Positions 10,391-64,000 of a stretch of 64,000 bases of DNA are shown here, one piece after another. The notes below the pieces were generated by a model, which saw nothing but the letters and a program-made list of their open reading frames with translations, was not told the origin of the DNA and did not search any database. The stretch comes from Nitrospirota bacterium (GTDB taxonomy: Bacteria > Nitrospirota > Nitrospiria > 2-01-FULL-66-17), in the NCBI GenBank assembly GCA_040757335.1, contig JBFLXB010000003.1, positions 53,899-117,898 of the forward strand, given 5' to 3'. Both the position numbers and the translations under genes were made by a program. Positions within the stretch are counted from its first letter, which is position 1, and each line of letters opens with the position of its first letter.

Positions 10391-10391
10391 G

Positions 10392-11720: not shown

Positions 11721-11750
11721 GACGATCGGTAACTTGACGGGCCGTAGAGC

Positions 11751-11883
11751 CCGTTCAGGGACGCGTCAGACGCAAGGCGCCGCGAGCACCGGACCTGTAG
11801 GGGCGTATTGCAATACACCCCTACAGAAACGTGAGCACCGGATGCGCAGCGGCAACGCAGCAGATGACCGTTCATGGACGGGC
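11751..11883. repeat. interspersed ~118-bp TIR-bearing repeat, copy A (minus orientation). Its central segment is replaced by a near-perfect 35-bp palindrome at 11792-11826
   Basis: Aligns to the copies at 22667, 39388, 42273 and 52036 (cccgttcagg...gcaaggcg...cgcagcggcaacgcagcagatgaccgttcatggacggg). Supplies the stop codon of the upstream USP gene. Confidence 0.8.
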
Positions 11884-42270: not shown

Positions 42271-42272
42271 TC

Positions 42273-42393
42273 GCCTGTCCATCAACGGCCATCTGCGGCG
42301 TTGTCGCTGCGCGTCCGCTCCTCACGTACGCACCCAGTACGCTGCGGTGCGGGCGCTCGCTCCGCCTTGCATCTGGCGCGTTGCTGAACAGGC
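42273..42393. repeat. interspersed ~118-bp TIR-bearing repeat, copy D (plus orientation)
   Basis: Begins 3 nt after the nuoD stop. cgcctgtccatcaacgg...gcgttgctgaacaggcg. Confidence 0.8.
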
Positions 42394-42414
42394 GCCGCTA
42401 CGCGGATTGGAAAG

Positions 42415-45737: not shown

Positions 45738-45745
45738 TTGGGCGG

Positions 45746-46378: not shown

Positions 46379-46683
46379 TGACGATCACGCTGACCCACTA
46401 CCTCGTCGTCAGCACGATCATCTTTTCACTCGGGCTTCTCGGCGTGCTGATCCGCCGCAATTTCATCATCGTGCTCATGGCCGTGGAAATGATGCTCAAC
46501 GCCGCCAATCTCAATCTGGTGGCGTTTTCGCACTACCTCAATTCCCTCACCGGCCAGATGGTCGCATTGTTTACGATCGCCATTGCCGCGGGCGAGGCCG
46601 CGGTGGGGCTCGCCATCATCGTGGTGATTTTCCGCGGCAAGATCGCGACCAATGTGGATCAGATCAATCTCCTGAAATGGTGA
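46378..46683 (+). CDS. nuoK: NADH-quinone oxidoreductase subunit K
   Basis: 101-aa 3-TM ND4L-like protein (LMAVEMMLNAANLNLVAFS). ATGA overlap with nuoJ. Confidence 0.85.
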   Translation: MTITLTHYLVVSTIIFSLGLLGVLIRRNFIIVLMAVEMMLNAANLNLVAFSHYLNSLTGQMVALFTIAIAAGEAAVGLAIIVVIFRGKIATNVDQINLLKW

Positions 46684-46717
46684 GACCGACCTCCGTCAAT
46701 CCCGGAAATCCCCCCAT

Positions 46718-46804
46718 CCCCCCTTTTTCAAAGGGGGGTAGAGGCGGGGCGGCTCCCGTGAATCTGTTGACCCTTCCTAGTATCCCCCCTTTGGAAAAGG
46801 GGGG
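46718..46804. repeat. two 21-nt hairpins (ccccccttt-NNN-aaagggggg) flanked by G-runs, in the nuoK-nuoL spacer
   Basis: 46718-46738 and 46784-46804. The loops are ttc and gga. Confidence 0.6.
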
Positions 46805-46833
46805 TGAGGGGGGATTTGGTTTTAAAACCTAGC

Positions 46834-48828
46834 ATGCTCTCCGTCGTCCTCATCCCGCTCCTGCCGCTGCTGGCCGTCCTCATCAACGGCGTGTTCGGCC
46901 GCCGGTACCTCAAAGAAGCCTCGCACTACTTCGCGGTAGGGTCGGTCGCGATCTCGTTCGTGCTGTCCATCTCGCTCTTGCTGCGCGTGATGGGCGGCGA
47001 TTCGCCGATCTCCGTTCCCATCTACTCGTGGATTTTTGGCGGAGGCCTCGATATCCACCTGGGATTCCTGATCGATCCGCTCTCCGCCGTGATGTTGATG
47101 GTGGTCACGGGCGTGGGGTTGCTGATCCACATCTATTCGATCGGGTACATGCACGGGGACCCCGGGTACTACCGCTTCTTCACGTACCTCAATCTGTTCA
47201 TGGTCTCCATGCTCCTGCTGGTGATGGGGGACAACTACCTGGTCCTCTTCATCGGGTGGGAAGGCGTGGGCCTGTGCTCGTACCTGTTGATCGCGTACTA
47301 CTTTGAGAAGGAATCCGCGACCAAAGCGGGCACCAAGGCGTTCGTGGTCAACCGCATCGGCGACGCGGGTTTTCTCGTCGCGATCTTTCTGATCATCCAG
47401 GAGTTCGGCACGCTGAACTATCTGGAAGTCTTCGACCGCGCCCACGAGCTGTCCACGGGCATGGCCACCGCGATCGCGTTGTGCCTGTTCATCGGCGCGA
47501 TCGGTAAATCCGCTCAGATCCCGCTGTACACGTGGTTGCCGGACGCGATGGAAGGTCCCACGCCGGTCAGTGCCTTGATCCACGCGGCCACCATGGTCAC
47601 CGCCGGGGTCTACATGGTAGTGCGCAACCACGCGATCTACGACCTGGCGCCGGTGGCGCTGACCACGGTGGCGGTCATCGGCGGGCTGACCGCGATCTTC
47701 GCCGCGACCATCGGCTTGGTCCAAACCGATATCAAGCGCGTGTTGGCCTACTCGACCGTGAGCCAGCTCGGGTACATGTTCCTGGGCTGCGGCGTAGGCG
47801 CGTACGCGGCCGCGATTTTCCACCTGGTTACACACGCGTTTTTCAAGGCGCTGCTGTTTTTGGGCTCCGGCAGCGTGATCCACGCGTTGGGCGGGGAGCA
47901 GGACATCCGCAAGATGGGCGGACTCAAGGCTGAGATTCCGGTGACTGCGCTGACGTTCTTAATCGGCACGATCGCGATCGCCGGGCTGCCTCCGTTGGCC
48001 GGGTTTTGGAGCAAAGACGAGATTCTTGGCATGGCGTTCAAGGGCGGGCACGGCGTGCTCTGGCTGATCGGCATGACCGGCGCATTCCTGACGTCGTTCT
48101 ACATGTTCCGCCTGTTCTATGTCACGTTCACCGGTACCACCAGGATGGACCACCACGTGGCGCAACACGTCCACGAGTCGCCCGGCGTGATGACCGTCCC
48201 GTTGATGATCCTGGCCGGGTTGTCGTTGCTCGGCGGGCTGATCCTGGGTGTCCCGCCCGAGGGCGGGTTGCTCCATGCTTTTCTCGCGCCGGTGGCATCG
48301 GCCGAGGGCGGGGAGGCGCACCACGGGTTCGGCGCCACTGACGTGGTCCTGATGGTCGCGTCCGTCCTCATTGCGCTGGGCGGCTGGTGGCTCGCGTACA
48401 CCATGTATGTGCGTCGTCCCGAGATGGCCGAGGCGTGGGCGCTGAAGTACGGGAATGCGCACCGTTTATTGCTGAACAAGTATTGGGTGGATGAGCTGTA
48501 CGATTTGCTGGTGGTCGAGCCGTCCAAGCGTCTCAGCGAGATCTGGGCGTGGTTCGACAACGTGGTGATCGACGGCGTGGTCCGCGGTGCGGCGCGCATG
48601 ACCCAGAGCAGTGCCTGGCTGTCGACCGCGATCGAGAAGTACGTTATTTATGGCTTCTTGAATGTGGTGGGCTACTCCAATCACTTGGGCGCGCGCACGT
48701 TCCGCCTCTTGCAGACCGGGTTTGTGCACCACTACGCGTTCATCCTGGTCATCGGCCTGGCGTTGATGGTGTATGTCTTCTGGTGGTGGAGCGGAGGCAG
48801 CGTGGCCGGCCTGCTGGCGCAGCGATGA
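46834..48828 (+). CDS. nuoL: NADH-quinone oxidoreductase subunit L (long form)
   Basis: ND5-like antiporter subunit, about 665 aa from MLSVVLIPLL. This is roughly 50 aa longer than E. coli NuoL (as recalled), which fits an extended lateral helix. Confidence 0.85.
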   Translation: MLSVVLIPLLPLLAVLINGVFGRRYLKEASHYFAVGSVAISFVLSISLLLRVMGGDSPISVPIYSWIFGGGLDIHLGFLIDPLSAVMLMVVTGVGLLIHIYSIGYMHGDPGYYRFFTYLNLFMVSMLLLVMGDNYLVLFIGWEGVGLCSYLLIAYYFEKESATKAGTKAFVVNRIGDAGFLVAIFLIIQEFGTLNYLEVFDRAHELSTGMATAIALCLFIGAIGKSAQIPLYTWLPDAMEGPTPVSALIHAATMVTAGVYMVVRNHAIYDLAPVALTTVAVIGGLTAIFAATIGLVQTDIKRVLAYSTVSQLGYMFLGCGVGAYAAAIFHLVTHAFFKALLFLGSGSVIHALGGEQDIRKMGGLKAEIPVTALTFLIGTIAIAGLPPLAGFWSKDEILGMAFKGGHGVLWLIGMTGAFLTSFYMFRLFYVTFTGTTRMDHHVAQHVHESPGVMTVPLMILAGLSLLGGLILGVPPEGGLLHAFLAPVASAEGGEAHHGFGATDVVLMVASVLIALGGWWLAYTMYVRRPEMAEAWALKYGNAHRLLLNKYWVDELYDLLVVEPSKRLSEIWAWFDNVVIDGVVRGAARMTQSSAWLSTAIEKYVIYGFLNVVGYSNHLGARTFRLLQTGFVHHYAFILVIGLALMVYVFWWWSGGSVAGLLAQR

Positions 48829-50450
48829 TGGAGCAGGTGTTCGCGGCGCAGCAGCTCGGATTCCCGATCCTCACCATCGTCACGTTCCTGCCGTTGGCCG
48901 GGGCGCTCGTGGTCTGGGCGCTGCGCGACGAAGCGATTGCCTGGAAAGTCGGGTTCGCGGTGGCGGCGGCCGACTTCGCGTTCAGCCTGCCCGTGTTTTT
49001 CGCGTTCACGCTCGACTCGTCGGCGATGCAGTTCGTGGAGCGGTACGCGTGGATTCCCGTTATCGGCGTGAGCTATCACGTCGGCGTGGACGGGATCAGC
49101 ATGCTGTTCGTGGTGCTGACCACGCTGCTGGGGTTCTTGATCGTGGTCTACGCGTCCGGGGTCGTGACGGAGCGCGTGCGCGGTTTCCTCATGGCGCTTT
49201 TCGCGTTGCAGACCACGATGTTGGGCGTGTTTGTCTCGCTGGATCTTGTGTTGTTTTTCCTGTTCTGGGAACTGATGCTGATCCCCTCGTACTTCATGAT
49301 TCGGCTGTGGGGCACCGAAGGCAAGGAGTACGCCGCGATCAAGTACGTGGTCTACACCCTATTGGGCAGCGTGCTGATGCTGGTGGGGATCGTGATCTTG
49401 TACCTGCAGCACTACCGGTTCGCGTCGATCCATGGTCTGGCCCCCGCGTTGTCGTTCGATCTGCTCGATCTGTTGCGGACGCCGATGTCCCTGGAAGTCC
49501 AGCTGGCGATCTTCGTGTTTCTCTTTTTCGGGTTCGCGTTCAAGACGCCGATCATTCCGTTTCACACCTGGATGCCTGATGCGCTGTATTCGGGGCCCAT
49601 CGCGATGAGTGTGATCCTGGCCGGTGTCAAGCTGGGAACGTTCGGGTTCGTGCGCTACTCGTTGCCGCTGGTGCCGGACGCGGCTCGTGCCGCGCTCCCG
49701 GTGATGATGGTGCTCGGGTTGATCGGCATTCTCTACGGTGCGTACATCGCGCTGATGCAGGCCGACTTCCGCAAGCTGTTGGCGTATTCCTCGATCAGCC
49801 ACCTCGGGTACGTGGCGCTCGGGATCTTCGCGCTGACGTACCAAGGGATCCAGGGAGGGCTGATCCAGATGATCAACCTCGGGATCTCGACCGCGGGGCT
49901 GTTCTTCTTCGCAGGCTTTCTCTGGACCCGGCGGCAGACGTTGACCATCGCGGAGTTCGGCGGGCTGGCCAAGACCACGCCCGTGCTGGCCACGTTTTTC
50001 CTCATCATGGTGCTCTCATCGATCGGCCTGCCGGGCACCAACGGGTTCATCGGGGAGTTCCTGATCCTGTTCGGCGCATTCAAAGCGCACTGGATCTACG
50101 GCGCGGTCGGGGTGCTGGGCGTGATCCTCGGCGCCGCGTACATGCTGTGGTTTTACGAACGCGCCGTTTTCGGCGCCGTGACTAAGGCCGTCAATGAACG
50201 CTTGCCGGACCTGGGCGGGCGTGAACTGGCGATTGCGCTGCCGCTGGTCGCGCTGGTCTTCTGGATCGGCGTGTATCCGTCGCCGTTTTTGCATCGGATC
50301 AACGGCTCGGTCGAGTCCCTGCACGCGCGGTTGCAGCCCAAAGCCGCCCTGTCAGCCACCGTTGGGGTTTCGCCTGATCAGGACGCGCTTTCTCCCCCTC
50401 TCCCAGTCGCCCCCTCTCCCCCTCGTCTTGCTTCTTCCGGGGCCCCGTGA
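48825..50450 (+). CDS. nuoM: NADH-quinone oxidoreductase subunit M (copy 1)
   Basis: ND4-like protein with a Pro/Ala-rich C-terminal tail. ATGA overlap with nuoL. Confidence 0.85.
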   Translation: MMEQVFAAQQLGFPILTIVTFLPLAGALVVWALRDEAIAWKVGFAVAAADFAFSLPVFFAFTLDSSAMQFVERYAWIPVIGVSYHVGVDGISMLFVVLTTLLGFLIVVYASGVVTERVRGFLMALFALQTTMLGVFVSLDLVLFFLFWELMLIPSYFMIRLWGTEGKEYAAIKYVVYTLLGSVLMLVGIVILYLQHYRFASIHGLAPALSFDLLDLLRTPMSLEVQLAIFVFLFFGFAFKTPIIPFHTWMPDALYSGPIAMSVILAGVKLGTFGFVRYSLPLVPDAARAALPVMMVLGLIGILYGAYIALMQADFRKLLAYSSISHLGYVALGIFALTYQGIQGGLIQMINLGISTAGLFFFAGFLWTRRQTLTIAEFGGLAKTTPVLATFFLIMVLSSIGLPGTNGFIGEFLILFGAFKAHWIYGAVGVLGVILGAAYMLWFYERAVFGAVTKAVNERLPDLGGRELAIALPLVALVFWIGVYPSPFLHRINGSVESLHARLQPKAALSATVGVSPDQDALSPPLPVAPSPPRLASSGAP

Positions 50451-52036
50451 TGCTCGACCAGCACCTCTTGTCGATCATTCTGTTCGCGCCGTTCGTCGGC
50501 GCCGCCGTGCTCTTGTTCGTCGACGGCAAGAAGTTGATGCAGGTTCGCGTGATCGCGGCGGTTTCCAGCGGGATCTCGTTCGTCGCGTCGGTGTACCTGT
50601 TGTACGCCTTCAACTACGCGCCCGGGTCGCCGCAGTTTCAGTTCCTCGAACAGTACGAGTGGTCGAAGGACCTGGGGATTTCGTTCTTCCTGGGCGTGGA
50701 CGGCATGTCGGTGCCGCTCGTGCTGGCGTCGTCGGTGTTGTTGTTCGCGGGGGTGTTCGTGTCGTGGCACATCGAAGACCGGGCGCGCGAGTTCTATATC
50801 TTCCTGCTGATCCTGGCGTCCGCAACGATCGGCGTGTACGTCTCGCTGGACCTCTTCTTCCTCTACTTTTTCTACGAGATGTCGGTGTTGCCCATGTATC
50901 CGCTCTTGGGCGTGTGGGGCAGCCACACCAAGGGCTACCTGGAGATGAAGGACACGGCCAAACGCGACTCCGTGGGCTTCATTTTCAACTTCGCGTCCAA
51001 CAGCAAGGAATACGCCGCGATGAAGCTGACGTTGTTTCTGTCGGCCGGCGCGGTGGTGGCGTTGCTGGGGATCTTCCTGACCTATGTGGGCACCGGCCTC
51101 AACACGTTCAACCTCATCGAACTGCAGGGTCACGAGCAGCAGTTTTCGCCCGTGATGCGCAGCGTGATCTGGCTGCTGCTCTTTTTCGGGTTCGCCTCGA
51201 TCGCGCCTCTCTGGCCCATGCACTCGTGGTCTCCGGTGGGCCACGCGGCCGCGCCCGCCGCGGTGTCCATGCTGCACGCGGGCGTGCTGATGAAGCTCGG
51301 GCATTTTTCGATCATCCGCGTCGCGTACTGGCTGTTCCCCCAGACCACCCAGGAGTGGGCGTTCCTGATCGCGATCCTGTGCGTGTTCTCGATCATCTAC
51401 GGCGGACTGGTGGCGTTCTTCCAGCGCGACACCAAATACGTGATCGGCTACTCCAGCTCCAGTCACATGGGCTACATCTTCCTGGGGATGGCCGCGCTCA
51501 ACATGATCAGCATGACCGGCGCCGTGCTCTACATGTTTGCGCACGCGCTGGCCACGGGGATGCTCTTTGCCATGGCCGGCTGGGTGTACGACCAGACCCA
51601 CACGCGGGATATCCCCTCGCTGGGCGGCCTGGGCCAGAAGATGCCGTTCATCATGGGCGCGTTCGTCGTGGCCCTGGTGGCTTCGGTGGGGCTGCCGGGC
51701 ACCGTCAACTTCATCGGCGAGCTGATGATCCTATCCGGGAGTTGGGAGCAGTATCCCGTCCAGGTGGTGATCGCCGTGATCGGCATCGTCATCACCCTCG
51801 CGTATCTGATGCGGATGTTCATCGGATTGTTCCTGGGCGACATGCAGCCCAAGTGGGCGCACGCCGGCGACGCGCGCTGGATCGACCGCGTGCCTTTGCT
51901 CATCATGATCTTCGGGAGCCTGTACTTTGGGTTGTTCCCCAGCCAGTTCATCCACGTGATCAGCGCGGGCATGCAGCCGATCCTGGAACAAATTAACGCG
52001 GCGGGCGCAGTAGCCTCCGCCGGGGGCGGAGGCTAG
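50447..52036 (+). CDS. nuoM: NADH-quinone oxidoreductase subunit M (copy 2, divergent paralog with an internal insertion)
   Basis: ND4-like protein. Insertion GSHTKGYLEMKDTAKRDSVGFIFNFASNSKEYAAMK. Start overlaps the nuoM copy 1 stop. Confidence 0.8.
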   Translation: MMLDQHLLSIILFAPFVGAAVLLFVDGKKLMQVRVIAAVSSGISFVASVYLLYAFNYAPGSPQFQFLEQYEWSKDLGISFFLGVDGMSVPLVLASSVLLFAGVFVSWHIEDRAREFYIFLLILASATIGVYVSLDLFFLYFFYEMSVLPMYPLLGVWGSHTKGYLEMKDTAKRDSVGFIFNFASNSKEYAAMKLTLFLSAGAVVALLGIFLTYVGTGLNTFNLIELQGHEQQFSPVMRSVIWLLLFFGFASIAPLWPMHSWSPVGHAAAPAAVSMLHAGVLMKLGHFSIIRVAYWLFPQTTQEWAFLIAILCVFSIIYGGLVAFFQRDTKYVIGYSSSSHMGYIFLGMAALNMISMTGAVLYMFAHALATGMLFAMAGWVYDQTHTRDIPSLGGLGQKMPFIMGAFVVALVASVGLPGTVNFIGELMILSGSWEQYPVQVVIAVIGIVITLAYLMRMFIGLFLGDMQPKWAHAGDARWIDRVPLLIMIFGSLYFGLFPSQFIHVISAGMQPILEQINAAGAVASAGGGG

Positions 52037-52155
52037 CCTGTCCATGAAGGACCATCTGCGGCGTTGCCGCTGCGCATCCGGTGCTCACGTACGCACCCAG
52101 TACGCTGCGCTCCGGTGCTCGCGGCGCCTTGCATCTGGCCCGTTCCTGAACAGGC
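52036..52155. repeat. interspersed ~118-bp TIR-bearing repeat, copy E (plus orientation)
   Basis: gcctgtccatgaaggacc...cccgttcctgaacaggc. Begins at the nuoM copy 2 stop. Confidence 0.8.
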
Positions 52156-52191
52156 TTGTAGGGGCACGACATTGGATGGATATCTAGGCCA

Positions 52192-53658
52192 ATGGAATTC
52201 ACACTGACCATCTCGTTTGCCGACCTGCTCTTGATGCTCCCGGAGCTCTTGCTCACGGGATTGATCGGTGTCGTCCTCTTCATCGACTTTACCTTCACCA
52301 AGGTCAGCAAGAACTCCCTGGCTTGGATCACGGTCGCTGGCCTGTGCGGTATTCTGGCGAGTCTGGTGTGGATGTGGGCCGCGGGCGTCCAAGGGGCGTT
52401 GTTCAAGCAGACCTTCGTGCTCGATCCGTTCGCGGTGTTCTTCAAAATCGTGGTGGTGCTGGCGACGATCTTGATCGTGCTGGCGTCGCTCGACTACATC
52501 AAGCGCATCGTCTTGTTCCGCGGCGAGTACTACCTCATGGTCATGTTGTCGGCGTTGGGGATGCTGTTCATGGCGTCGTCCAACGACCTCCTGACCATGT
52601 TCATCACCATCGAGTTCTCCACGTTCGGCTTCTACATTCTGGTGGCCTATTTGCGCGAGGACGATCTTCGATCCAGCGAGGCGGGTTTGAAGTACTTCGT
52701 CCTGAGCGTCTTCACCGCCGCGGTGATGGTGTTCGGGATCAGCCTGATTTACGGCGAGACCGGCACGATCATTTTCCCCGAGATCGCGGCGGCACAGCCG
52801 GTCCTGACCGGCGGTTTGATCATCGGGTTCCTCTGCTTGTTGGTGGGCCTGGGATTCAAGATCGGCGCGTTCCCGTTCCACAACTGGATTCCTGATATCT
52901 ACCAGGGCGCGCCGACCCCGATCACCGCCTACCTGGGGATCGCCCCCAAAGCCGCGGCATTAGCGATCGTGCTGAGGGTGTTCTTTTCAACCTTCGGCCA
53001 GTTCAAGCCCGAGTGGGTGTGGCTGGTGATCGGCATGGCTGCGTTGTCCATGACCTACGGGAACGTGGTGGCCATTGCGCAGACCGACATCAAGCGCATG
53101 CTCGCGTATTCCGGCATCGCGCAGATGGGCAATATGCTGATCGGCCTCGCGGCCGGGACCAAAATGGGCGGCGACTCGGTGATGTTCTACCTGCTGACGT
53201 ACCTGGTGGCCAACATCGGGGCGTTCGCCGTGGTCATCGTCTTCTCCAACCTGACGGGCAGCGATCGCATCGAGGACTACCGAGGCCTGGCCCGCCGCGC
53301 GCCGCTGTTGGCCGCGGCGATGTTGGTCTTTCTGCTTTCGCTCGCCGGCGTCCCGCCGTTGGCGGGCTTCATCGCGAAGATCTACGTGTTCACGGCGGCC
53401 ATGAAGCAGGGGTTGATCGTGCTGGTCTGTATCGGCTTGGTCAACATCGTGATCTCGATGTACTACTACCTCGTCATCGTGAAGAGGATGTACATCAACG
53501 AGCCCACGGACCGTCGCCCGATCCCGATGTCGGCTCCGATGCAGGCCGTGGTCTACACCACGCTCGCGGGCACCGTGATCCTCGGCATCTACCCCAAGCC
53601 CTTCATCGAGTGGGCGGTCTCCTCCACCGCCCTGTTCGCGCACCTCGTCGGGCCGTAA
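52192..53658 (+). CDS. nuoN: NADH-quinone oxidoreductase subunit N
   Basis: ND2-like 14-TM protein. Confidence 0.85.
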   Translation: MEFTLTISFADLLLMLPELLLTGLIGVVLFIDFTFTKVSKNSLAWITVAGLCGILASLVWMWAAGVQGALFKQTFVLDPFAVFFKIVVVLATILIVLASLDYIKRIVLFRGEYYLMVMLSALGMLFMASSNDLLTMFITIEFSTFGFYILVAYLREDDLRSSEAGLKYFVLSVFTAAVMVFGISLIYGETGTIIFPEIAAAQPVLTGGLIIGFLCLLVGLGFKIGAFPFHNWIPDIYQGAPTPITAYLGIAPKAAALAIVLRVFFSTFGQFKPEWVWLVIGMAALSMTYGNVVAIAQTDIKRMLAYSGIAQMGNMLIGLAAGTKMGGDSVMFYLLTYLVANIGAFAVVIVFSNLTGSDRIEDYRGLARRAPLLAAAMLVFLLSLAGVPPLAGFIAKIYVFTAAMKQGLIVLVCIGLVNIVISMYYYLVIVKRMYINEPTDRRPIPMSAPMQAVVYTTLAGTVILGIYPKPFIEWAVSSTALFAHLVGP

Positions 53659-57241: not shown

Positions 57242-57976
57242 TCAGCGGTCGTGGCAGATGAAGCAGAGATCCTGGGCGGGCGCGCGGAGAAACGGCGCGC
57301 TGCCGTTATCGTGGGGGTCGTGGCAGCTGTCGCATTGGACCCGTCCCTCCGAGGTGCGGACGACCTGAACGCCCGGACTCGCGTCGTCCGCCGACACCGC
57401 GGGGACGGCCAGCAAACGCGAGGTGGGACCCGTCGGCAGGACCAGATCGCCGTTGCGAAGGTCGGGAATCGACCAATACCGGTATTGGTTGACCGTGGGG
57501 CGCTCGGGGATGAACTTGCCGTTGGCGCGGCGAGGGTAGACCACGTTGTACGGGTGGTCGAACTTCTGCGCGTCCGGGTCGCCCATTTGGTGAACCTCCT
57601 GGCCCAACACGCCGTCGTGACACCCGAGGCACGCCGTCGAGGACCCGCCGGTGGCCAAGGAGACGGTGTAGGCCGGTGCCCCTCGTTGCCAGAGCGGGGG
57701 TGCGGGAGGGGGCTCCGCGTCGAGAGGCGCACTCAGCGCGGGTGGGACCGCGACCTCCGGAGCTTGCGCTTCGTCCGCTCGCGGCGAGGTCGCGCCCGGA
57801 CCGACGCGCCCGGGTCCTTCCGCGTGGCAGCCGTAGCAGACGCGGCTTCCGATCGGGAACTCGGTCCGTGCAAAGAAGTTGTGCGGGCTGGACAGGACAG
57901 TTTCGTACGGCTCGAGCGCTGCAGCGCCCGTCGGGGCCAACGCGACCAGCGTCGCGAGGAGCAACCACCGGATCAT
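57242..57976 (-). CDS. periplasmic tetraheme cytochrome c
   Basis: Signal peptide [20 protein letters not shown]. Four CxxCH motifs: CYGCH, CLGCH, CDSCH, CFICH. Start overlaps the glmM stop by 4 nt. Confidence 0.75.
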
Positions 57977-59376
57977 TGGTCCACCGTCGAACCGGCGCCC
58001 ACACGACTTCTCAGCGCCTCGGCCAACTCTTCGGCGACGCGAGAAATCACGTGGAAGTCCTCGCCCTCCACCATCACCCGCAGCAGCGGTTCGGTTCCGG
58101 AATACCGGACGAAGATTCTCCCCTGGGGGCCCAATCGACGCTCCAAGTCGGACACGATTTGGGTGTAACCCTGAATGTCGGCGAGTTCGCGGCGCTCGGC
58201 CACGCGGACGTTGACCAGCACCTGGGGAAAGACCGTCATGCACGCGCTGAGTTCGGACAACCGTTTCCCGGTGCGCTCCATCGTGGCGAGGACTTGGAGC
58301 GCGGTAATGAGTCCGTCGCCGGTGGTGTTGAAATCCAGGAAGATGACGTGTCCAGACTGTTCGCCGCCGAACACGCACCCGTCTTTGAGCATCCGCTCGA
58401 GCACGTACCGATCGCCGACCGCGGTGCGCACGAGCGAGATGCCCGCGTGGCGCAACGCCAGTTCCAACCCGAGGTTGCTCATGACCGTGGCGACGACGGT
58501 GTGTCCCGCCAGTCGCCCCGCACGCTCCATCTCGAGCGCGCACAACGCCAGGATTTGGTCGCCGTGCACGACTTTGCCCTGCTCGTCGCAGAACACCACG
58601 CGGTCCGCGTCGCCGTCGTGGGCGATGCCGATGTCCGCGCGGTGCGCCGCCACCGCTTTCTGCAGGGCTTCGGGGTACAGGGCTCCGCAGTGCTGATTGA
58701 TGTTGGTGCCGTTGGGCCGGTCTCCGATCGTGATCACCTCGGCACCCAACTCGCGCAGCACCGTCGGCGCGACCTTGTACGCGGCGCCGTTCGCGGTGTC
58801 CACGACGATCTTCATGCCGTCGAACTGCATGCCCTTCGGCAACGTGTTCTTGACGAATTCGATGTAGCGGCCGTCGGCGTCGTCCACGCGGAACGCCTTG
58901 CCGATCTCCCGCGCGGTGGGACGTTCGTGGTCGATCGCCCCGGAGAAGATCAACTCTTCGATTTCTTGTTCCACCCCATCGGGCAGCTTGAAGCCGTCGT
59001 GTGAAAAGAACTTGATGCCGTTGTCTTCGAACGGGTTGTGCGAGGCGGAAATTACGACGCCGGCGTCGGCGCGGAGGCTCTTGGTCAGAAAGGCGATGGC
59101 CGGGGTGGGCATCGGCCCCACCAGCAGGACGTCGACGCCCATCGAGCAGATGCCGGCCGTCAGGGCGCTCTCCAGCATATAGCCGGATAGGCGGGTGTCC
59201 TTTCCGATCACGAAGCGGTGGTGTCCGGTCCGGTGCTTCTTGAAGAGATAGGCCGCCGCTCGCCCCAGCTTCATGGCGGTTTCGGCGGTGACCGGCTCGA
59301 CGTTGGCGGTGCCGCGAACGCCGTCGGTTCCGAAGAGTCTGCGCTCGACGCTCAGTCTCGACACGATGTCGGTCAT
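57973..59376 (-). CDS. glmM: phosphoglucosamine mutase
   Basis: GTDGVRG is the conserved N-terminal motif. The phosphoserine-loop motif is also present. Confidence 0.85.
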
Positions 59377-59430
59377 CTTAGCAGGCAGGTGCCACCTTTT
59401 CAACCAACGCGCTGCGCGGTGCGAAGCGGG

Positions 59431-60363
59431 TCAGGGCGTCTCGCAGCATCCGGTCCCCAGCAGCCCCACCCCGGCCAGCGTCAGCCCCACTCCGAGCCAT
59501 TCCCTCCCGGCGAGGCGCTCCTGGAGGCGATGTCGCGCGATCAGGATCGTAACCAAGGGATAGGCCGAGGCGATCGGGGCCGCCACCGCGGCCGGAGCGT
59601 CGCGAAGGGCGACGCCGTACGCGAAAAATGCCGTCAGGTCGAGCAACGCGGCCGCGACCACCACGCCCCAGAGTCCGTTGCGAGGCTCTGCGCGAGGTGC
59701 TGCGACGCTGGCGGACGAGGCCGGTTCGCGAGGCGTGCCGCTGGATCGGGATCGCCCGATCAGCCACCAGGTGCTGATGATCGCCAAAACCTCGAGACGC
59801 AGGGTGGCGACGGGAACGAACGCTCCCGCGCTCCGCACCGCGGGCAACAGCAATGCCGTCCCGGATCCCCACGCCAGCAGGGTGACCACCCCCGCGCGGA
59901 TCCCCTGCCGACGTCCTATCGGGGCCAGGGCGCCGATCGCGCCGGGGTCGGCTGAGAGGACGCAGATTCCGATCAAGGTCAGGCCGATGCCCCCGAGCCG
60001 GGCTCCGGACGCGGCTTCGCCGAAAAAACCGATCCCGGCCAGCACCGGCACGGCCGCGCCCGCGCTGCTGATGGGGCTGACCAGCGAAATCGCGCCGACG
60101 CGAAGACCGTAGAAGAACGCCAGATACCCGACCACGAAGCAGCCAGCGGCGGGCGTGATCCACACGAGATCGCGCGTGTCGGGGAGGGGCGCACGGAGGA
60201 TGGCCCACAACGACAACAGGACGGGCACACCGACCAGTTGGATGCGGAGCAGCGCACCAATTTCCCCCACCCGGCGCGTGACGCGCGCGGCGAGATAGTC
60301 CGCCACGCCCCATGCGAGACAGGTGACGACCGCACAGGCGATTCCGAGCGCCGGGGCGGTCAC
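59431..60363 (-). CDS. EamA/DMT-superfamily transporter
   Basis: 10 TM segments with two EamA repeats. Confidence 0.7.
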   Translation of the reverse strand: MTAPALGIACAVVTCLAWGVADYLAARVTRRVGEIGALLRIQLVGVPVLLSLWAILRAPLPDTRDLVWITPAAGCFVVGYLAFFYGLRVGAISLVSPISSAGAAVPVLAGIGFFGEAASGARLGGIGLTLIGICVLSADPGAIGALAPIGRRQGIRAGVVTLLAWGSGTALLLPAVRSAGAFVPVATLRLEVLAIISTWWLIGRSRSSGTPREPASSASVAAPRAEPRNGLWGVVVAAALLDLTAFFAYGVALRDAPAAVAAPIASAYPLVTILIARHRLQERLAGREWLGVGLTLAGVGLLGTGCCETP

Positions 60364-60382
60364 GGCGGGAATCGTCTGGCGA

Positions 60383-61114
60383 TTATCGTCGGATCCCGCA
60401 CGCCCGCGCGACGCCGTCTCGGTATGCGAGCCACAGATCGAGCGAACGCTCCATGGCGTGTACGACGCGCTCCTGGGCTTCAGGAGCGGTTGCGTAGTCC
60501 ATCACCATCTTCCAGGCGTCCCGGCGGTGGAGCCCTTCGACGGCTCCGTGCGCGCGGGCCAGCTCCAAGTACCGCGGAGCCACGTGATGGTACTTCACCA
60601 GCGGGTGTTCGGCGATCTTTCGCTCGATATCGGGTTCCTCCCGGACCGTGCCGTTCAACACCGCACGCTCGTGGACGCTCCCCTCGACAAAGATCGTGGC
60701 GACCGCCGCGCCCTCGATCCACGAGGCCGTGGTGGTGACTTGGTCAAGCCATCGCCGATAGGCCGCGCTTTCGGGCAGCAATTCAACGGTGTCGAAGTCC
60801 TGGGGGGAAAACCCGAGGCCTTCCATCAGATACAGGAAGAGGTCGGGGTGGGCGCGCCCGCGGGTCAGCCCGCCGGTTTCTTCCTCGTACAGGTTCTCGG
60901 CGAGCGCCCGCCGAACCGGAGTGGGCGGGTTCTTGCCGTGCACGCGGGCCAGAAAAACGGGGAAATCGCGGACGTAGACCGCGTACTCCTGTTGGAAGTG
61001 GGTCTTGAGTTGATCGACGGTGACCGCGCCGGTCGCGAACGCGTTCCACGCCCAGTGGTCCTTGTGATCCATCACGTTCAACAACCGCTCTCGAAACGCA
61101 TCGTGCGTCGTCAT
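60383..61114 (-). CDS. heme-oxygenase-like fold protein (TenA/PqqC family)
   Basis: ERLLNVMDHKDHWAWNAF...QQEYAVYVRDFPVFL is the typical TenA/PqqC helical core. Start at MTTHD. Confidence 0.5.
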   Translation of the reverse strand: MTTHDAFRERLLNVMDHKDHWAWNAFATGAVTVDQLKTHFQQEYAVYVRDFPVFLARVHGKNPPTPVRRALAENLYEEETGGLTRGRAHPDLFLYLMEGLGFSPQDFDTVELLPESAAYRRWLDQVTTTASWIEGAAVATIFVEGSVHERAVLNGTVREEPDIERKIAEHPLVKYHHVAPRYLELARAHGAVEGLHRRDAWKMVMDYATAPEAQERVVHAMERSLDLWLAYRDGVARACGIRR

Positions 61115-61236
61115 ACCGGTCCTCCGTGCCCTTCGATGTGCGGACGTCATTGTAACACAGCGCTGTGAGAAGCCGTGCGCGCCGACCATCACGATGTCCA
61201 GTCGGTCGCCTGGAAATGACCGGCGCGGGATCTGTG

Positions 61237-61266
61237 TTGACAAACGTTTTCCGCGCGGCATACAAT
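61237..61266 (+). promoter_or_regulatory. sigma70 promoter (TTGACA-N18-TACAAT) immediately upstream of the DsrE-like gene. Implies a leaderless or very short-leader transcript
   Basis: -10 hexamer ends 5 nt before the ATG at 61272. Confidence 0.35.
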
Positions 61267-61271
61267 TCGCC

Positions 61272-61610
61272 ATGAAAATCGGTATCTTGCTGACCACCGG
61301 CAGCGATCATGAGAACGGATACCTCGTGGGGAAATTGTCGGAGGCGTGGCTGAAACAGGGCCACGAAGTCGACCTGTTTCTGATGGGGGAGGGCGTGTAT
61401 CACGCGCAGGCCATCGCGTCTCCCAAGCGACCCTACGCGGCGATGCCGGCGTTGCTGGCCCTGGGTGCCAAGGTTGCCGTGTGTGGCGTGACCGCGGAGG
61501 CGCGGGGCGTGTCCGAAACCGACCTATATCCCGGGATTGAAATCGCAAGTCAGTACGAGCTGTCCCGCATCGTGGACCGAGCCGATCGGTTCCTCACCTT
61601 CGGCGACTGA
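61272..61610 (+). CDS. DsrE/TusD-like sulfur-relay protein
   Basis: MKIGILLTTGSDHENG...VAVCGVTAE. DsrE/DsrF-like family with a conserved Cys. Confidence 0.6.
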   Translation: MKIGILLTTGSDHENGYLVGKLSEAWLKQGHEVDLFLMGEGVYHAQAIASPKRPYAAMPALLALGAKVAVCGVTAEARGVSETDLYPGIEIASQYELSRIVDRADRFLTFGD

Positions 61611-61616
61611 TCGACG

Positions 61617-61961
61617 GTGAAAGGCGTGGTGGTGGCCGTCCGGAGCAGCCCCCTGACCACGGGGCGGGTTCATGAAGCGCTGCGGATGGCACTCGGAATG
61701 ACGCTCTCGAATCACCGCGTCACGGTGGTATACACGGGCGACGGTGCGTCTGCCGCGCTGACGCTGAACGGCGAAATCCTGCATCGCCCGGGGCTCGCCG
61801 AGTCGCTGGAGCTGCTGGACGCGTGCCAGATTCGAGAGGTGGTCGAGCGGGAGGCGTTGGCGCCCGGCAACCGATCCGCCCTGCGAAAACGCGTGGAACT
61901 TTTGGATCGCGACGCCGTAGTCGGGCTGCTCGCGGCGTCGGATGTGGTGATTGCATGGTAG
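61617..61961 (+). CDS. DsrF/TusC-like protein
   Basis: VVVAVRSSPLTTGRVHEALRMALGMT is DsrE/F fold. Confidence 0.5.
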   Translation: MKGVVVAVRSSPLTTGRVHEALRMALGMTLSNHRVTVVYTGDGASAALTLNGEILHRPGLAESLELLDACQIREVVEREALAPGNRSALRKRVELLDRDAVVGLLAASDVVIAW

Positions 61962-62218
61962 CCGGCCGTGCGCTCCATATCGTCCGACGGCGAGCGGACG
62001 GTCTGGCCATGTCCGTGATCGCCGCCCAGAGCGGCGTGCGACCGGTTGAGGTGGTATTGGTCCAGGACGGGGTCTTCGCCGACATTCCCCCGCCACTCGC
62101 GGTCTGCGTCAATGACGAGGACGTGGTCGCGCGCGGTATCGACACGCGGTATCGGCGGGTGGGATACGACGAGATCGCAGAAATGGTCTGTGACGCCGTC
62201 TGCGTCACGGTGTGGTGA
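61955..62218 (+). CDS. DsrH/TusB-like small protein
   Basis: 88 aa. Third gene of a DsrEFH-like triplet. ATG overlaps the preceding stop. Confidence 0.4.
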   Translation: MVAGRALHIVRRRADGLAMSVIAAQSGVRPVEVVLVQDGVFADIPPPLAVCVNDEDVVARGIDTRYRRVGYDEIAEMVCDAVCVTVW

Positions 62219-62242
62219 CGCGGGACGAACCGCAGAGAAAGG

Positions 62243-62500
62243 GTGGAGCACACGACGATGGGTGCAGCGTACACGATCGATCACGTGTTGGACTGCAAAG
62301 GACTGAACTGTCCGTTGCCGGTGATCAAGACCAAAAAAGCCATTGAAAAGATGACGGTCGGCCAAATTCTGCAGATGGTGGCGACCGATCCGGGGTCCAA
62401 ACCTGATATGGCGGCGTGGTCAAAGAGCACGGGTCACGAATTGCTCGAAACACGGGAAGAAGCGGGTTTGTACACGTTCTTCATCCGGAAGACGAAGTAA
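62243..62500 (+). CDS. tusA: TusA-family sulfurtransferase
   Basis: LDCKGLNCPLPVIKTKKAI contains the CPxP motif. Confidence 0.7.
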   Translation: MEHTTMGAAYTIDHVLDCKGLNCPLPVIKTKKAIEKMTVGQILQMVATDPGSKPDMAAWSKSTGHELLETREEAGLYTFFIRKTK

Positions 62501-62535
62501 CGACCGTGCGGCCGCGATCAATCATGAGGTGAGCG

Positions 62536-63135
62536 ATGGGGACGACGTCACAAGATCTCGATCAATTGGTGGCGGCCAAAGTCAAGGAGCTGGCCGAACA
62601 CCGACTTGAAGAACTTGTCCGCGAACAGGTCAAAGTTGCGCTCGACGCGGAAGCCCGTAAGGCATCTCGGCCCAAGCGGATCGCCATCGTCTCCTCCAAA
62701 GGGACACTCGACGCCGCCTACCCGCCGCTGATTCTGGCCACCACGGCGGCCGCACTGGACATGGAGGCGGGGGTCTTTTTCACCTTTTTCGGGCTCCACA
62801 TCCTGAAAAAGGAAGGCATCGAGAAGCTCAAATTCGTTCCGCTGGCCAACCCGGCGATGCCCATGCCGATGCCCAACCTGGTGGGGGCGCTTCCGGGTAT
62901 GACCGGGCTCGCCACGTTCATGATGAAACAGACCATCAAACACAAGCACATCGCGTCGATCCCCGAGCTCATGGATCTCGCCAAGGAGAGCGGAGTCAAG
63001 CTCTGGCCGTGTCAGATGACCATGGACATGATGGACATCAAGCGGGAGGATCTGATCGAAGGCCTCGAAGACCCGGTCGGGGCGGCGACGTTTTTGGAGT
63101 TCGCTTCACACAGCGACATCACGCTGTTTGTGTGA
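62536..63135 (+). CDS. DsrE2-like (DsrE/DsrF family, 'peroxiredoxin family protein'-type) sulfur carrier with an N-terminal helical extension
   Basis: RIAIVSSKGTLDAAYPPLILATTAAALDMEAGVFFTFFGL...LWPCQMTM. Confidence 0.5.
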   Translation: MGTTSQDLDQLVAAKVKELAEHRLEELVREQVKVALDAEARKASRPKRIAIVSSKGTLDAAYPPLILATTAAALDMEAGVFFTFFGLHILKKEGIEKLKFVPLANPAMPMPMPNLVGALPGMTGLATFMMKQTIKHKHIASIPELMDLAKESGVKLWPCQMTMDMMDIKREDLIEGLEDPVGAATFLEFASHSDITLFV

Positions 63136-63154
63136 CGACCAGTAACGACGCGAC

Positions 63155-63179
63155 AAGGGCACCCGTAGGGGGTGCCCTT
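63155..63179 (+). terminator. GC-rich hairpin (10-bp stem, aagggcaccc-gtagg-gggtgccctt) after the DsrE2-like gene
   Basis: Perfect 10-bp stem with no U-tract. High-GC genomes often lack one. Confidence 0.35.
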
Positions 63180-63233
63180 CGCGTATCGGAGATCCGCGTG
63201 GGCGCGGATGGCGACGGACAAGGAGGAGGACTG

Positions 63234-63416
63234 ATGTCGGATATTTTGGTGGTATCGTCGAAGATCAAGAAGTTCGTTCGGGAGAAAGCCGGGTTCAATA
63301 CCTCGGCGGAGACGCTGGAGGCGCTCAGTCAGCGGGTTGAGAAGATCTGTGCCGACGCGATCGAGCGCGCGCGGGCCGACGGACGCAAGACCGTCAAAGC
63401 GCGTGATATCGTCTGA
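63234..63416 (+). CDS. bacterial histone-fold protein (DUF1931 / HBb-like singlet histone)
   Basis: 61 aa. MSDILVVSSKIKKFVREKAGFNTSAETLEALSQRVEKICADAIERARADGRKTVKARDIV closely resembles bacterial histone singlets. AGGAGGAGGA Shine-Dalgarno 5 nt upstream. Confidence 0.6.
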   Translation: MSDILVVSSKIKKFVREKAGFNTSAETLEALSQRVEKICADAIERARADGRKTVKARDIV

Positions 63417-63467
63417 GCGCCGGCGGAGCCAGAGGCTGTGGATGGTGCCGGCGGGGCGAAATACCGT

Positions 63468-63496
63468 TTGACACGTTTGGGCAGGCCCCGTATAAT
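63468..63496 (+). promoter_or_regulatory. consensus sigma70 promoter (TTGACA-N17-TATAAT) for rho, followed by a ~220-nt leader
   Basis: Exact consensus hexamers with 17-nt spacing. Confidence 0.55.
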
Positions 63497-63721
63497 ATGA
63501 GCCGGTTTCCGTATCTTCCAAGCGCTGATCCCCAGACATATTCGCGGTGGTAGGGACATCCAACCCCCAAGTACGATTTGAACACCAACGGGCTTCGCAG
63601 TAGGACACACTAACCGAACGGACCACACTGTCCAACGCACGGGGATAAGCGCATTTGCGCGACACTGGCGAACGGTGGGATCGCGCGCGTGGGGCGTGAT
63701 CTCAAGCCGGTAGGAGGACCC

Positions 63722-64000
63722 ATGAATCTGAGCGAACTTAAAGAGAAGACGATCGCGGACCTGAACGAAGTTGCCAGGGACCTGAAAATCGAAGGGGCCA
63801 GCAACCTGCGAAAGCAGGAACTGATCTTTGCGATCCTACAGGCGCAGGCCGAGAAGAACGGGACGATCTACGGCGAGGGAGTTCTCGAGACGCTGCAAGA
63901 CGGTTTTGGGTTCCTGCGTTCGCCGGACTACAACTACCTCCCCGGTCCGGACGACATCTACATTTCCCCGTCACAGATCCGTCGGTTCAATCTGCGGACC
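63722..64000 (+). CDS. rho: transcription termination factor Rho, N-terminal part (continues beyond the window)
   Basis: [39 protein letters not shown]...[33 protein letters not shown]. Confidence 0.9.

Follow-up and report, generated by a model that had tools for sequence, protein, structure and literature searches.

A cluster of five small genes in an uncultured Nitrospirota, a relative of nitrite-oxidising bacteria, raises the question of what a sulfur relay does in such a host: to which sink would its products deliver sulfur, and how is its first gene expressed? The genes lie on the plus strand at 61272–63135 of the window, by which is meant the whole 64 kb stretch of DNA analysed, in the order dsrE-dsrF-dsrH-tusA-dsrE2. 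They form a genuine operon, every component of which comes from an already described family, and the elements listed in a preliminary description of the locus were found in their places or within 1 nt of them. Current understanding is not overturned by the operon. A single feature sets it apart, a conserved promoter abutting the first gene, so near to it that the mRNA is probably leaderless.

The gene boundaries, at first described as overlapping or near-overlapping throughout, are strictly so for the first three genes only. In other words, dsrE and dsrF are separated by 6 nt, and dsrF and dsrH share the heptanucleotide ATGGTAG (an overlap of 7 nt), whereas tusA and dsrE2 follow after gaps of 39 and 35 nt, respectively. 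This order and spacing are kept in loci L001 and L006–L010, which come from uncultured Nitrospirota (five genomes at species level). Purifying selection acts on all five genes, with dN/dS values of 0.05–0.14 for dsrE, 0.06–0.12 for tusA, 0.13–0.33 for dsrF and mostly 0.13–0.49 for dsrH, obtained at a dS of about 1–2, where synonymous sites are saturated. A G+C-rich hairpin without a U tract (63148–63184, plus strand; core GGGCACCC-GUAGG-GGGUGCCC), starting 13 nt 3' of the dsrE2 stop codon, is the probable 3' end of the operon or an attenuator; its region has a minimum free energy of −49 kcal/mol over 111 nt (z = −2.8). No further promoter-like or terminator-like site was found on the plus strand between 61266 and 63468. 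Genes for a complex I of aerobic style, two of its subunits being NuoM-like, lie elsewhere in the window.

The sigma-70-type promoter noted in the preliminary description, TTGACA-N18-TACAAT ending 5 nt before the first ATG, is present exactly so at 61237–61266 (plus strand), with TTGACA at 61237–61242, an 18-nt spacer, TACAAT at 61261–61266, and then TCGCC and the dsrE ATG at 61272. It matches the consensus at 11 of 12 positions, and is one of five sites of such quality on both strands of the 64 kb, where 0.02 are expected from Markov-shuffled sequence. Leaderless bacterial mRNAs are well documented in Actinobacteria and Deinococcus, and rare in E. coli. The sequence features by which they were recognised here, a −10 box that precedes the start codon by about 5–8 nt, the lack of a Shine-Dalgarno sequence and an initial AUG codon, are all found at dsrE, where the stretch from the −10 box to the ATG contains nothing resembling a Shine-Dalgarno sequence; moreover, in both cases only the first cistron is affected. 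The operon differs from these mRNAs in that the dsrE start is a predicted one, in that its promoter combines a −35 box of full consensus and a spacer of 18 nt, and in that the leaderless state is specific to one clade.

The earlier suggestion of a leaderless mRNA is strengthened by comparison of the loci. Indeed, the −35 box, the 18-nt spacer, the −10 box, a 5-nt gap of the form YYGCC and the ATG are kept in all five orthologous loci L006–L010 (four distinct sequences), while the remaining intergenic region has diverged. In all six loci the first codon of dsrE is ATG, never GTG, and the C-A (pyrimidine-purine) junction before it is invariant. Since promoter, spacing and ATG are kept despite saturated synonymous sites, a leaderless dsrE mRNA is well supported by comparison and is probable. 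Transcription would start from the A of the dsrE ATG, so that translation of the first cistron would be leaderless, those downstream relying on overlap coupling or on ribosome-binding sites of their own.

It is improbable that the mRNA is other than leaderless, either with the hexamers setting a start site at which the ATG is lost or with another promoter upstream that supplies a leader, and with translation from the same or a downstream codon. In favour of this, the transcription start is one predicted from sequence comparison, the 5-nt gap is one base below the commonest E. coli spacing, and the orthologous dsrE of locus L015 has a 22-nt leader with GGAGG, so that the predicted leaderless state is specific to the window's clade. 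Leaderless genes are not known to have been described in Nitrospirota, and no transcription-start data for the phylum were found in the literature. The invariance of gap, C-A junction and ATG in six loci at saturated dS nevertheless speaks for the leaderless form, as do the lack of a ribosome-binding site upstream of dsrE and of a second promoter-like site on the plus strand of the 157-nt intergenic region. A downstream start is also unlikely, because residues 1–10 of the protein (MKIGILLTT) align with the first strand of the DsrE model, position 1 of the Pfam model falling on residue 1. A conserved consensus promoter abutting the ATG offers a clean candidate for the study of leaderless translation in Nitrospirota.

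The triplet that this promoter precedes had been described as DsrEFH/TusBCD-like, and the profile models do assign its products to the DsrE, the DsrF and, weakly, the DsrH families. The dsrE-like gene (61272–61610, plus strand), whose ATG is also the predicted 5' end of the mRNA, encodes a putative active subunit of 112 residues that matches PF02635 over its full length (60.5 bits). Its Cys71 is invariant in six orthologues and 23 diverse family members, and aligns with Cys78 of both A. vinosum DsrE (2HY5_A) and E. coli TusD (2D1P_A) in the motif ‘vCvaaaqrRG’. Identity to 2HY5_A is below 30% (27 identities over 93 query residues in 110 alignment columns; phmmer E = 0.039), and the protein is not a TusD/DsrE equivalog, since it scores 25.3 bits with TIGR03012, against a cut-off of 89.25. 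The dsrF-like gene (61617–61961, plus strand; 114 residues) has a conserved GTG start. Its product is assigned to the fold by Pfam only (PF02635, 25.5 bits over the full length, cut-off 22.7), reaches 21.3 bits (E = 2e-4) with TIGR03010, where the cut-off is 94.15, and is 62–81% identical among orthologues, with a Cys70 that is invariant in the window's clade only. For the dsrH-like gene (61955–62218, plus strand; 87 residues), the start of which overlaps the dsrF stop by 7 nt, family assignment is weak (TIGR03011, 17.5 bits, cut-off 49.2), and no cysteine is invariant among 20 close or six distant sequences. The evidence for the triplet includes a DsrH-like fold of this product.

A canonical, type I identity as DsrEFH or TusBCD is ruled out by scores far below the cut-offs of the equivalog models (TIGR03012/NF001237 for TusD/DsrE, TIGR03010/NF001238 for TusC/DsrF and TIGR03011 for TusB/DsrH), together with the absence of a conserved cysteine in DsrH. 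With the canonical complexes of Allochromatium vinosum (PDB 2HY5) and E. coli (PDB 2D1P) the triplet has in common the position of the active-site cysteine in the E/D subunit and TusA as the expected donor. It differs in a shorter DsrE-like subunit (112 residues against 130), in a DsrH-like subunit without a conserved cysteine, where Cys20 of the A. vinosum protein was reportedly described as conserved by Dahl et al. in 2008, and in its position outside any dsr operon and away from tusE and mnmA. JGI annotators label these triplet proteins as TusBCD components.

The tusA gene (62258–62500, plus strand; 80 residues), with the ribosome-binding site AAAGGGTGGAG upstream, encodes a member of PF01206 (86.8 bits against a gathering score of 28.6), which stays below the cut-off of the E. 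coli-type equivalog NF001423 (63 bits against 78). The CPxP motif claimed for it is real: Cys18, the active-site residue of a C-P-L-P sequence, pairs with the cysteine of CPEP in an alignment to E. coli TusA that spans the motif, and both Cys18 and Cys13 are invariant in eight sequences. The dsrE2-like gene (62536–63135, plus strand) has GAGGTGA as its ribosome-binding site, and its product of 199 residues comprises a DrsE_2 domain (residues 47–199; PF13686, 172.4 bits) behind a charged N-terminal extension (residues 1–46); with NF047629 it scores 183.8 bits, below the cut-off of 210. The conserved C-terminal cysteine attributed to this protein is Cys159, its sole conserved cysteine, which is kept in 120 of 120 close homologues and has its equivalent in the best solved relative, the Sulfolobales DsrE2B (SSO1126, 2QS7), as well as in 3PNX and 3MC3. 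The 46-residue extension is found neither in the 159-position model nor in the solved DsrE2 structures. Neither of the findings that would have spoken against the preliminary description was made: in each of the DsrE, TusA and DsrE2 homologues the catalytic cysteine is in place and kept, and none of the profile models points to an unrelated family.

Within the DsrE2 group, for which linkage to Dsr or Hdr systems is the defining trait (PMC4175335), the prototype of the DsrE2A subgroup, Alvin_2601, has two strictly conserved cysteines and two predicted transmembrane helices (PMC4175335), although the transmembrane prediction is itself disputed. Membership of DsrE2A is ruled out here, as the window protein has one conserved cysteine, not two, and no segment at the hydropathy of a transmembrane helix (19-residue maximum 1.43, below 1.6). 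Archaeal DsrE2B neither reacted with nor bound partners in vitro, and the literature assigns DsrE2 no settled role (PMC4175335). As in the tusA-dsrE2 (rhd-tusA-dsrE2) pair of sulfur oxidisers, tusA adjoins a DrsE_2-family gene, but without rhodanese or hdr genes alongside.

From published traits, the triplet best resembles the ‘type II’ DsrEFH, the dsrE-like gene and two conserved hypothetical genes of the YTD cluster yedE-tusA-dsrE-chp-chp, whose describers recognise it by bit scores above 80 with three HMMs in an extension of HMSS2 (Plum-Jensen et al., ISME J 2026; PMC13293266). In type II, transfer from TusA to DsrE Cys67 and on to DsrC was shown in vitro, the sulfur-binding cysteine being Cys67 of DsrE in E. 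aureum and none being required in DsrF or DsrH; the trimer is of 33 kDa, and Nitrospirota make up 57% of subtype 1 (PMC13293266). The window locus likewise has three small syntenic genes of the DsrE/F/H fold, a family-wide conserved cysteine in the DsrE subunit only, less than 30% identity to type I with F and H subunits that sequence comparison hardly detects, a place in one operon with tusA, and subunits totalling 313 residues, in keeping with a trimer of about 33–34 kDa; it also shares with subtype 1 a phylum in which the latter is frequent. It differs from the YTD cluster in its order, dsrEFH preceding tusA, and in having a dsrE2-like gene after tusA instead of yeeE/yedE: no Sulf_transp gene occurs in the window or in L001 and L006–L010. 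The gene arrangement dsrE-F-H-yeeE-tusA-tusA surrounds a 46% identical DsrE in Methylomirabilota (L013/L014).

Taken together, we give about an even chance to the reading that the operon encodes a cytoplasmic persulfide relay with a type II-like heterocomplex, a dissimilatory oxidation sink and a leaderless first cistron. Its products would carry sulfane sulfur as cysteine persulfides in the cytoplasm. Sulfur would be loaded on Cys18 of TusA and passed to Cys71 of DsrE within a type II-like heterotrimer or hexamer of DsrE, DsrF and DsrH, in which the latter two, having no family-wide conserved cysteine, would act as scaffold subunits. From DsrE it would move to an acceptor whose gene would lie at another place in the genome, with the DsrE2-like protein, through Cys159, as an auxiliary carrier or adaptor working with TusA. 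What the analysis shows is the gene content, the families and folds, the kept cysteines, purifying selection, and the conservation of synteny and of promoter geometry; that the proteins form a complex, which way the sulfur flows, where it ends and the exact base at which transcription starts are inferred.

The sink is most likely dissimilatory oxidation of sulfane sulfur, by way of DsrC/DsrAB or an sHdr-type system, in a non-nitrifying Nitrospiria lineage that is autotrophic by the rTCA cycle and probably belongs to the order 2-01-FULL-66-17. This leaning comes from several sources: the C-P-L-P of TusA, leucine at X of CPXP having been described for TusA of sulfur oxidisers (PMC11094781); the linkage of the DsrE2 group to Dsr and Hdr; the prediction that hydrogen, sulfite and/or sulfide are used by that order, which is without nitrite oxidation and has been described as autotrophic through the rTCA cycle and as a user of electron donors (PMC9802188); the Dsr or Sox genes of early-branching aquifer Nitrospiria (PMC11033732); and the sulfur-compound permeases (YeeE, TauE) beside close relatives. 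In the 64 kb window itself, dsrAB, dsrC, sox, hdr, sqr, rhodanese and yeeE genes are all absent, and neither dsrAB/dsrC nor tusE/mnmA occurs in it or within 10 kb in L001. If the relay does feed sulfur oxidation, then an uncultured, early-branching, non-nitrifying order of Nitrospiria would be a sulfur-based autotroph, and type II DsrEFH would extend to an operon with DsrE2.

The distant relatives of the triplet make a biosynthetic role the serious rival. At 36–39% identity they stand beside genes for ThiS, ThiF, PALP (cysteine-synthase-like), JAB and rhodanese, a setting of thiocarboxylate-type biosynthesis: L018 reads Rrf2-PALP-ThiS/ThiF-dsrE-dsrF-dsrH-tusA-ThiS-PALP-JAB-rhodanese, and L019 has two triplets and a tusA near ThiS and PALP. 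The relay might, in assimilation or biosynthesis and not in energy metabolism, pass persulfide to enzymes that form thiocarboxylates or thiolate their substrates, for instance to carriers of the ThiS/CysO type, to Tus-like 2-thiolation of tRNA uridine or to molybdenum cofactor synthesis, a possibility that we regard as real though the less probable one. It gains from the location of the window and Caldisericia clusters among housekeeping genes, from the occurrence of the triplet in the manganese oxidiser Ca. Manganitrophus, from the roughly 21% of type II-carrying genomes that lack dsrAB (a figure derived from published percentages; PMC13293266), and from the JGI annotation. Set against this, the closest relatives (45–53% identical) adjoin YeeE or TauE permeases or DsrE2, the TusD, TusC and TusB models return 25, 21 and 17.5 bits where 89, 94 and 49 are called for, TusA carries the sulfur-oxidiser variant of its motif, and the surroundings of the window cluster include no gene for ThiS, ThiF, MnmA or TusE.

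Dissimilatory oxidation is also to be weighed against reduction or disproportionation of sulfur compounds, the role first proposed for the YTD cluster, which is upregulated during thiosulfate disproportionation and has been put forward as a marker in Desulfobacterota and Nitrospirota (PMC12998232, PMC13293266). The five-component set does recur in Caldisericia MAGs, some with a reductive label, but the window's complex I is of aerobic style, the lineage has been described as an rTCA autotroph with electron donors, the locus lacks yedE, and type II DsrEFH correlates poorly with disproportionation in the 2026 study (PMC13293266). We regard such a role as unlikely.

That the five genes belong together is supported beyond the window's clade as well: the same five-gene module is found with a TauE permease in L015, where DsrE is only 50% identical, and the five components are reordered in Caldisericia as dsrE2-tusA-dsrE-dsrF-dsrH (L020); elsewhere in the class Nitrospiria, relatives have tusA-dsrE2 without the triplet. 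Some depositors name the Caldisericia MAG protein ‘sulfur reduction protein DsrE’. It is conceivable, if rather unlikely, that DsrE2, TusA and DsrE/F/H form a self-contained module across these phyla (Nitrospirota, the L015 lineage and Caldisericia) that dispenses with DsrAB/DsrC and with a YeeE importer and feeds a novel sink, which could be a thiocarboxylate-type assimilation or, in non-nitrifying Nitrospiria, a cytoplasmic route of sulfur oxidation yet to be described; this form of DsrE2, with its long N-terminal helix, might then use that helix as an adaptor to a partner. Five components recurring in distant phyla provide a concrete set of proteins for testing the role of DsrE2.

The gene divergent from the operon (60383–61114, minus strand), with GGAGGA as the ribosome-binding site 5' of it, encodes a protein of the Haem_oxygenas_2/TenA fold (PF14518, 75.5 bits against a gathering score of 28.9), as the description of a heme-oxygenase-like neighbour of TenA/PqqC fold had anticipated. 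It matches 1RCW, 8VA9 and 9PJ4 (E = 3e-7 to CT610) and scores 50 bits with the CADD subfamily model TIGR04305, the cut-off of which is 200; it may be a heme-oxygenase-like iron enzyme related to the CADD 4-aminobenzoate synthase. Since it adjoins the operon in the window's clade only, a functional link to the relay is not supported, and it is probably not part of it. Its putative promoter has an extended −10 element on the minus strand at 61149–61157 (TGTTACAAT), and the motif CATTGTA[AGT]CA[CT]A is kept in all six loci though the flanking sequence has diverged.

The five plus-strand genes that diverge from a heme-oxygenase-like gene make up a real and conserved sulfur-relay operon belonging to a previously described kind, in which a type II-like DsrEFH triplet is joined to a TusA-DsrE2 pair, here in an uncultured lineage. 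The preliminary description, which had called it a sulfur-carrier cluster, was accurate in its observation and is upheld in its interpretation. By sequence and ORF reading the locus holds six genes: one on the minus strand and, divergent from it on the plus strand, a dsrE-like gene (61272-61610, 112 aa), a dsrF-like gene (61617-61961, 114 aa, GTG start), a dsrH-like gene (61955-62218, 87 aa), tusA (62258-62500, 80 aa) and a dsrE2-like gene (62536-63135, 199 aa), the last two each with a good ribosome-binding site. From dsrE to dsrF there are 6 nt, dsrF and dsrH overlap by 7 nt (ATGGTAG), and the two genes that follow are set off by 39 nt and 35 nt respectively. Since a strong G+C-rich hairpin (63148-63184, z = -2.8) lies 3' of the dsrE2 stop codon, and no further promoter-like or terminator-like site was found within the cluster, a single five-gene transcript is the simplest reading. 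An Rfam scan of 59000-64000 returned no credible RNA family. The G+C content of the window is 63.7% and the named closest homologues of its genes come from uncultured Nitrospirota/Nitrospiria; an exact-sequence look-up of the DsrE2-like protein itself gave no record.

The DsrE-like protein matches the Pfam DsrE model over its full length (60.5 bits), as does the DsrF-like protein (25.5 bits, cut-off 22.7), while the DsrH-like protein reaches 17 bits with Pfam DsrH, under the cut-off; TusA and the DsrE2-like protein score 86.8 bits (Pfam TusA) and 172 bits (Pfam DrsE_2). Against the NCBIfam models the values are 25.3 for TusD/DsrE (cut-off 89.25), 21.3 for TusC/DsrF (94.15), 17.5 for TusB/DsrH (49.2), 63 for TusA (78) and 183.8 for DsrE2 (210). 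All three subunits of the triplet are therefore far under the equivalog cut-offs, and the triplet is not canonical DsrEFH or TusBCD. No meaningful match among PDB sequences was obtained for the DsrH-like protein with phmmer or for a profile of the six DsrF-like sequences. Profile-profile comparison of the DsrF- and DsrH-like with the DsrE-like alignments matched 16-23 columns at the 'DGV' strand only, the profiles being too shallow (Neff ~1.6), and AlphaFold, given the DsrF-like sequence singly, produced a model of no use (pLDDT 47). A search of all window ORFs found no paralogues of the five proteins and no DsrC-type C-terminal Cys motif.

Cys71 of the DsrE-like protein aligns with the Cys of the 'C...RG' motif in Allochromatium vinosum DsrE and E. 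coli TusD, and does not vary among the six orthologues or among 23 family members with identities down to 33%. In TusA, Cys18 sits in a C-P-L-P motif and aligns with the active site of the E. coli protein, a second invariant residue being Cys13; CPXP with Leu at X has been reported in TusA of sulfur oxidisers (PMC11094781). The DsrE2-like protein has a single conserved cysteine, Cys159, present in 120 of 120 homologues and aligned with that of DsrE2B SSO1126, whose structure is solved. Alignments of DsrH-like homologues contain no conserved Cys, and Cys70 of the DsrF-like protein was rejected as a second active site, being conserved within the clade only. A DsrEFH-like triplet, a CPxP TusA and a DsrE2-type protein had been proposed from the outset, and missing cysteines in the DsrE and TusA homologues, or HMM assignment to unrelated families, had been named as grounds for abandoning the proposal; since Cys71, Cys18 and Cys159 are present and conserved, and the HMMs place the proteins in the DsrE/DsrF, DsrH (weakly), TusA and DrsE_2 families, those grounds do not arise.

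The closest described counterpart is DsrEFH type II, which comprises the dsrE-like gene of the YTD cluster (yedE-tusA-dsrE-chp-chp) along with its two hypothetical genes, has < 25-30% identity to type I and forms a 33 kDa trimer (Plum-Jensen et al., ISME J 2026, PMC13293266). In vitro, Cys67 of its DsrE takes sulfur from TusA and hands it on to DsrC; type II is present in 985 genomes, usually in synteny with tusA and yeeE, and its subtype 1 is found mainly in Nitrospirota (PMC13293266). The window triplet agrees with it in all testable features except the yeeE synteny, a comparison made on these features rather than with the authors' HMMs. The tusA-dsrE2 pair is well known in sulfur oxidisers, but the DsrE2A prototype has two conserved cysteines (PMC4175335), whereas the window protein has one; moreover, no convincing transmembrane segment was found in it. 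Its residues 1-46 (62536-62673) add an N-terminal extension that is charged at 17 of its 46 positions and probably helical, and which neither the 159-position DsrE2 model nor the solved DsrE2-type structures possess. The extension is seemingly common to close homologues, whose lengths span 184-223 aa with the exception of a single 148-aa fragment, and this long form with a single Cys is of modest interest.

Upstream of dsrE lies a promoter consisting of TTGACA (61237-61242), an 18-nt spacer and TACAAT (61261-61266), followed by TCGCC and the ATG; within the 64 kb just five sites lie equally near consensus, where 0.02 would be expected. Both hexamers, the spacer, the 5-nt gap (as YYGCC) and the ATG are retained in the orthologous loci of five different species (four different sequences), whereas the intergenic region, 118-226 nt in length, is otherwise diverged. 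Given that dS between the orthologous genomes is ~1-2, such that synonymous sites are saturated, this conservation argues strongly for function. The ATG has no ribosome-binding site in front of it, and residue 1 of the DsrE-like protein aligns with position 1 of the DsrE model. Transcription start sites usually prefer a pyrimidine-purine junction, which the C-A junction at the A of the ATG provides. Taken together, these features make a leaderless first cistron a well-supported prediction from sequence, in line with the original suggestion drawn from a promoter ending 5 nt before the ATG, and this comparatively well-supported candidate is again of modest interest. The trait would be clade-specific, since a more distant orthologue (L015) has, after its TACAAT, a 22-nt leader containing GGAGG.

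The order GlmM-EamA-heme-oxygenase-like / dsrE-F-H-tusA-dsrE2-histone-rho recurs unchanged in all six orthologous loci (L001 and L006-L010). One of the genomes is RIFCSPHIGHO2_01_FULL_66_17, from which, judging by the name alone, the order name 2-01-FULL-66-17 appears to derive; the order is listed under the non-Nitrospirales 'other Nitrospiria'. Scanning genome contigs with the DsrH-like alignment recovered five species of this clade only and no distant relatives, which were sampled instead by exhaustive protein search and genomic-context look-ups. With the DsrE-like protein, the exhaustive search yielded no more than 126 50%-identity clusters at E <= 1e-3, none exceeding 53% identity, the named relatives being Ca. 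Manganitrophus, Methylomirabilota and Caldisericia. The contexts are dsrE-F-H-yeeE-tusA-tusA in Methylomirabilota (L013/L014, DsrE 46%), the same five genes with a TauE permease (L015, 50%), triplet-tusA with TauE opposite (L016, 53%) and dsrE2-tusA-dsrE-dsrF-dsrH in Caldisericia (L020); that the five-component set recurs in different phyla is also of modest interest. Elsewhere in class Nitrospiria, relatives carry tusA-dsrE2 without the triplet. In one such relative (L003/L004, 9743-12170) the order is tusA-dsrE2, a dsrE3-like gene (126 aa) and a GcvH-like gene (145 aa), whose product may not be lipoylated, since ESGQ replaces the lipoyl-lysine motif ESVK.

The model with the best support is that of a cytoplasmic persulfide relay, in which sulfur would pass from Cys18 of TusA to Cys71 of DsrE inside a DsrE/F/H complex and thence to an acceptor encoded elsewhere, with Cys159 of DsrE2 as a putative auxiliary carrier. 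The 64-kb window contains no dsrAB, dsrC, sox, hdr, sqr, rhodanese or yeeE. Dissimilatory sulfur oxidation is favoured as the sink, at roughly an even chance, on the basis of the predicted physiology of the lineage, the motif in TusA, the linkage to DsrE2 and the association of the closest relatives with permeases. The order is described as rTCA-autotrophic, as without nitrite oxidation and as a probable user of hydrogen, sulfite or sulfide (PMC9802188), and Dsr or Sox genes are present in early-branching Nitrospiria of aquifers (PMC11033732). A biosynthetic or assimilatory sink, less probable yet a serious rival, would be in keeping with the housekeeping surroundings of the window cluster, with the triplet in a manganese oxidiser (L011, Ca. 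Manganitrophus, DsrE 45%), where it stands alone and adjoins a cytochrome c peroxidase, and with distant relatives in ThiS/ThiF/PALP contexts. These are Rrf2-PALP-ThiS/ThiF-dsrE-dsrF-dsrH-tusA-ThiS-PALP-JAB-rhodanese (L018, 4818-11933, DsrE 39%) and an archaeal-looking locus with two triplets and tusA near ThiS and PALP (L019, 36%). By appearance, the surroundings of the L018 relay are a CysO/CysM/Mec-type thiocarboxylate cysteine-biosynthesis cluster.

The minus-strand neighbour (60383-61114, GGAGGA upstream), which had been described as heme-oxygenase-like with a TenA/PqqC fold, proves to be a Haem_oxygenas_2/TenA-fold protein, a distant relative of CADD 4-aminobenzoate synthases. It is served by a conserved extended -10 box, TGTTACAAT (61149-61157, minus strand), which lies upstream of the gene's ribosome-binding site and ATG at a distance of ~28 nt, with no recognisable -35 box. 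Neither this gene nor the EamA permease was accepted as part of the system: both are adjacent in this clade only, with no such adjacency at any of the more distant loci, so there is no evidence that the neighbour belongs to it. Directly downstream of glmM, in the window and in L001, is a gene (approximately 57242-57976, minus strand) for a 244-aa multihaem cytochrome c with four CxxCH motifs and a Paired_CXXCH_1 domain.

Between dsrE2 and rho, all six loci encode a histone-fold protein (85-95% identity), whose gene starts only ~35 nt past dsrE2 in L001, L007 and L008. The 60-aa window protein (63234-63416, plus strand) shares ~60% identity (E 1e-18) with 8CMP and 8FVX, solved structures of the bacterial histone Bd0055/HBb from Bdellovibrio bacteriovorus, and looks like a bacterial histone in Nitrospirota. 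A perfect TTGACA-17-TATAAT promoter (63468-63496, plus strand) lies ~226 nt upstream of rho (ATG 63722), which implies a long rho leader, without a match to any Rfam family. Further away, an odd three-gene cluster (9947-13911, minus strand) encodes a CopD-like membrane protein, another that combines radical SAM, SPASM and PCP_red, and a third of 679 aa in which two Usp domains occur together with a rubredoxin-like domain and three PCP_red domains. A complex I operon (40008-53658, plus strand), assigned from translations with a Pfam check on the NuoG-like gene only, comprises nuoB, C, D, a fused NuoG-like subunit, J, L, M, M and N, without nuoE/F; it has two NuoM-like genes (48549-50450 and 50447-52036) and is similar to the '2M' complex I reported for Nitrospirota.
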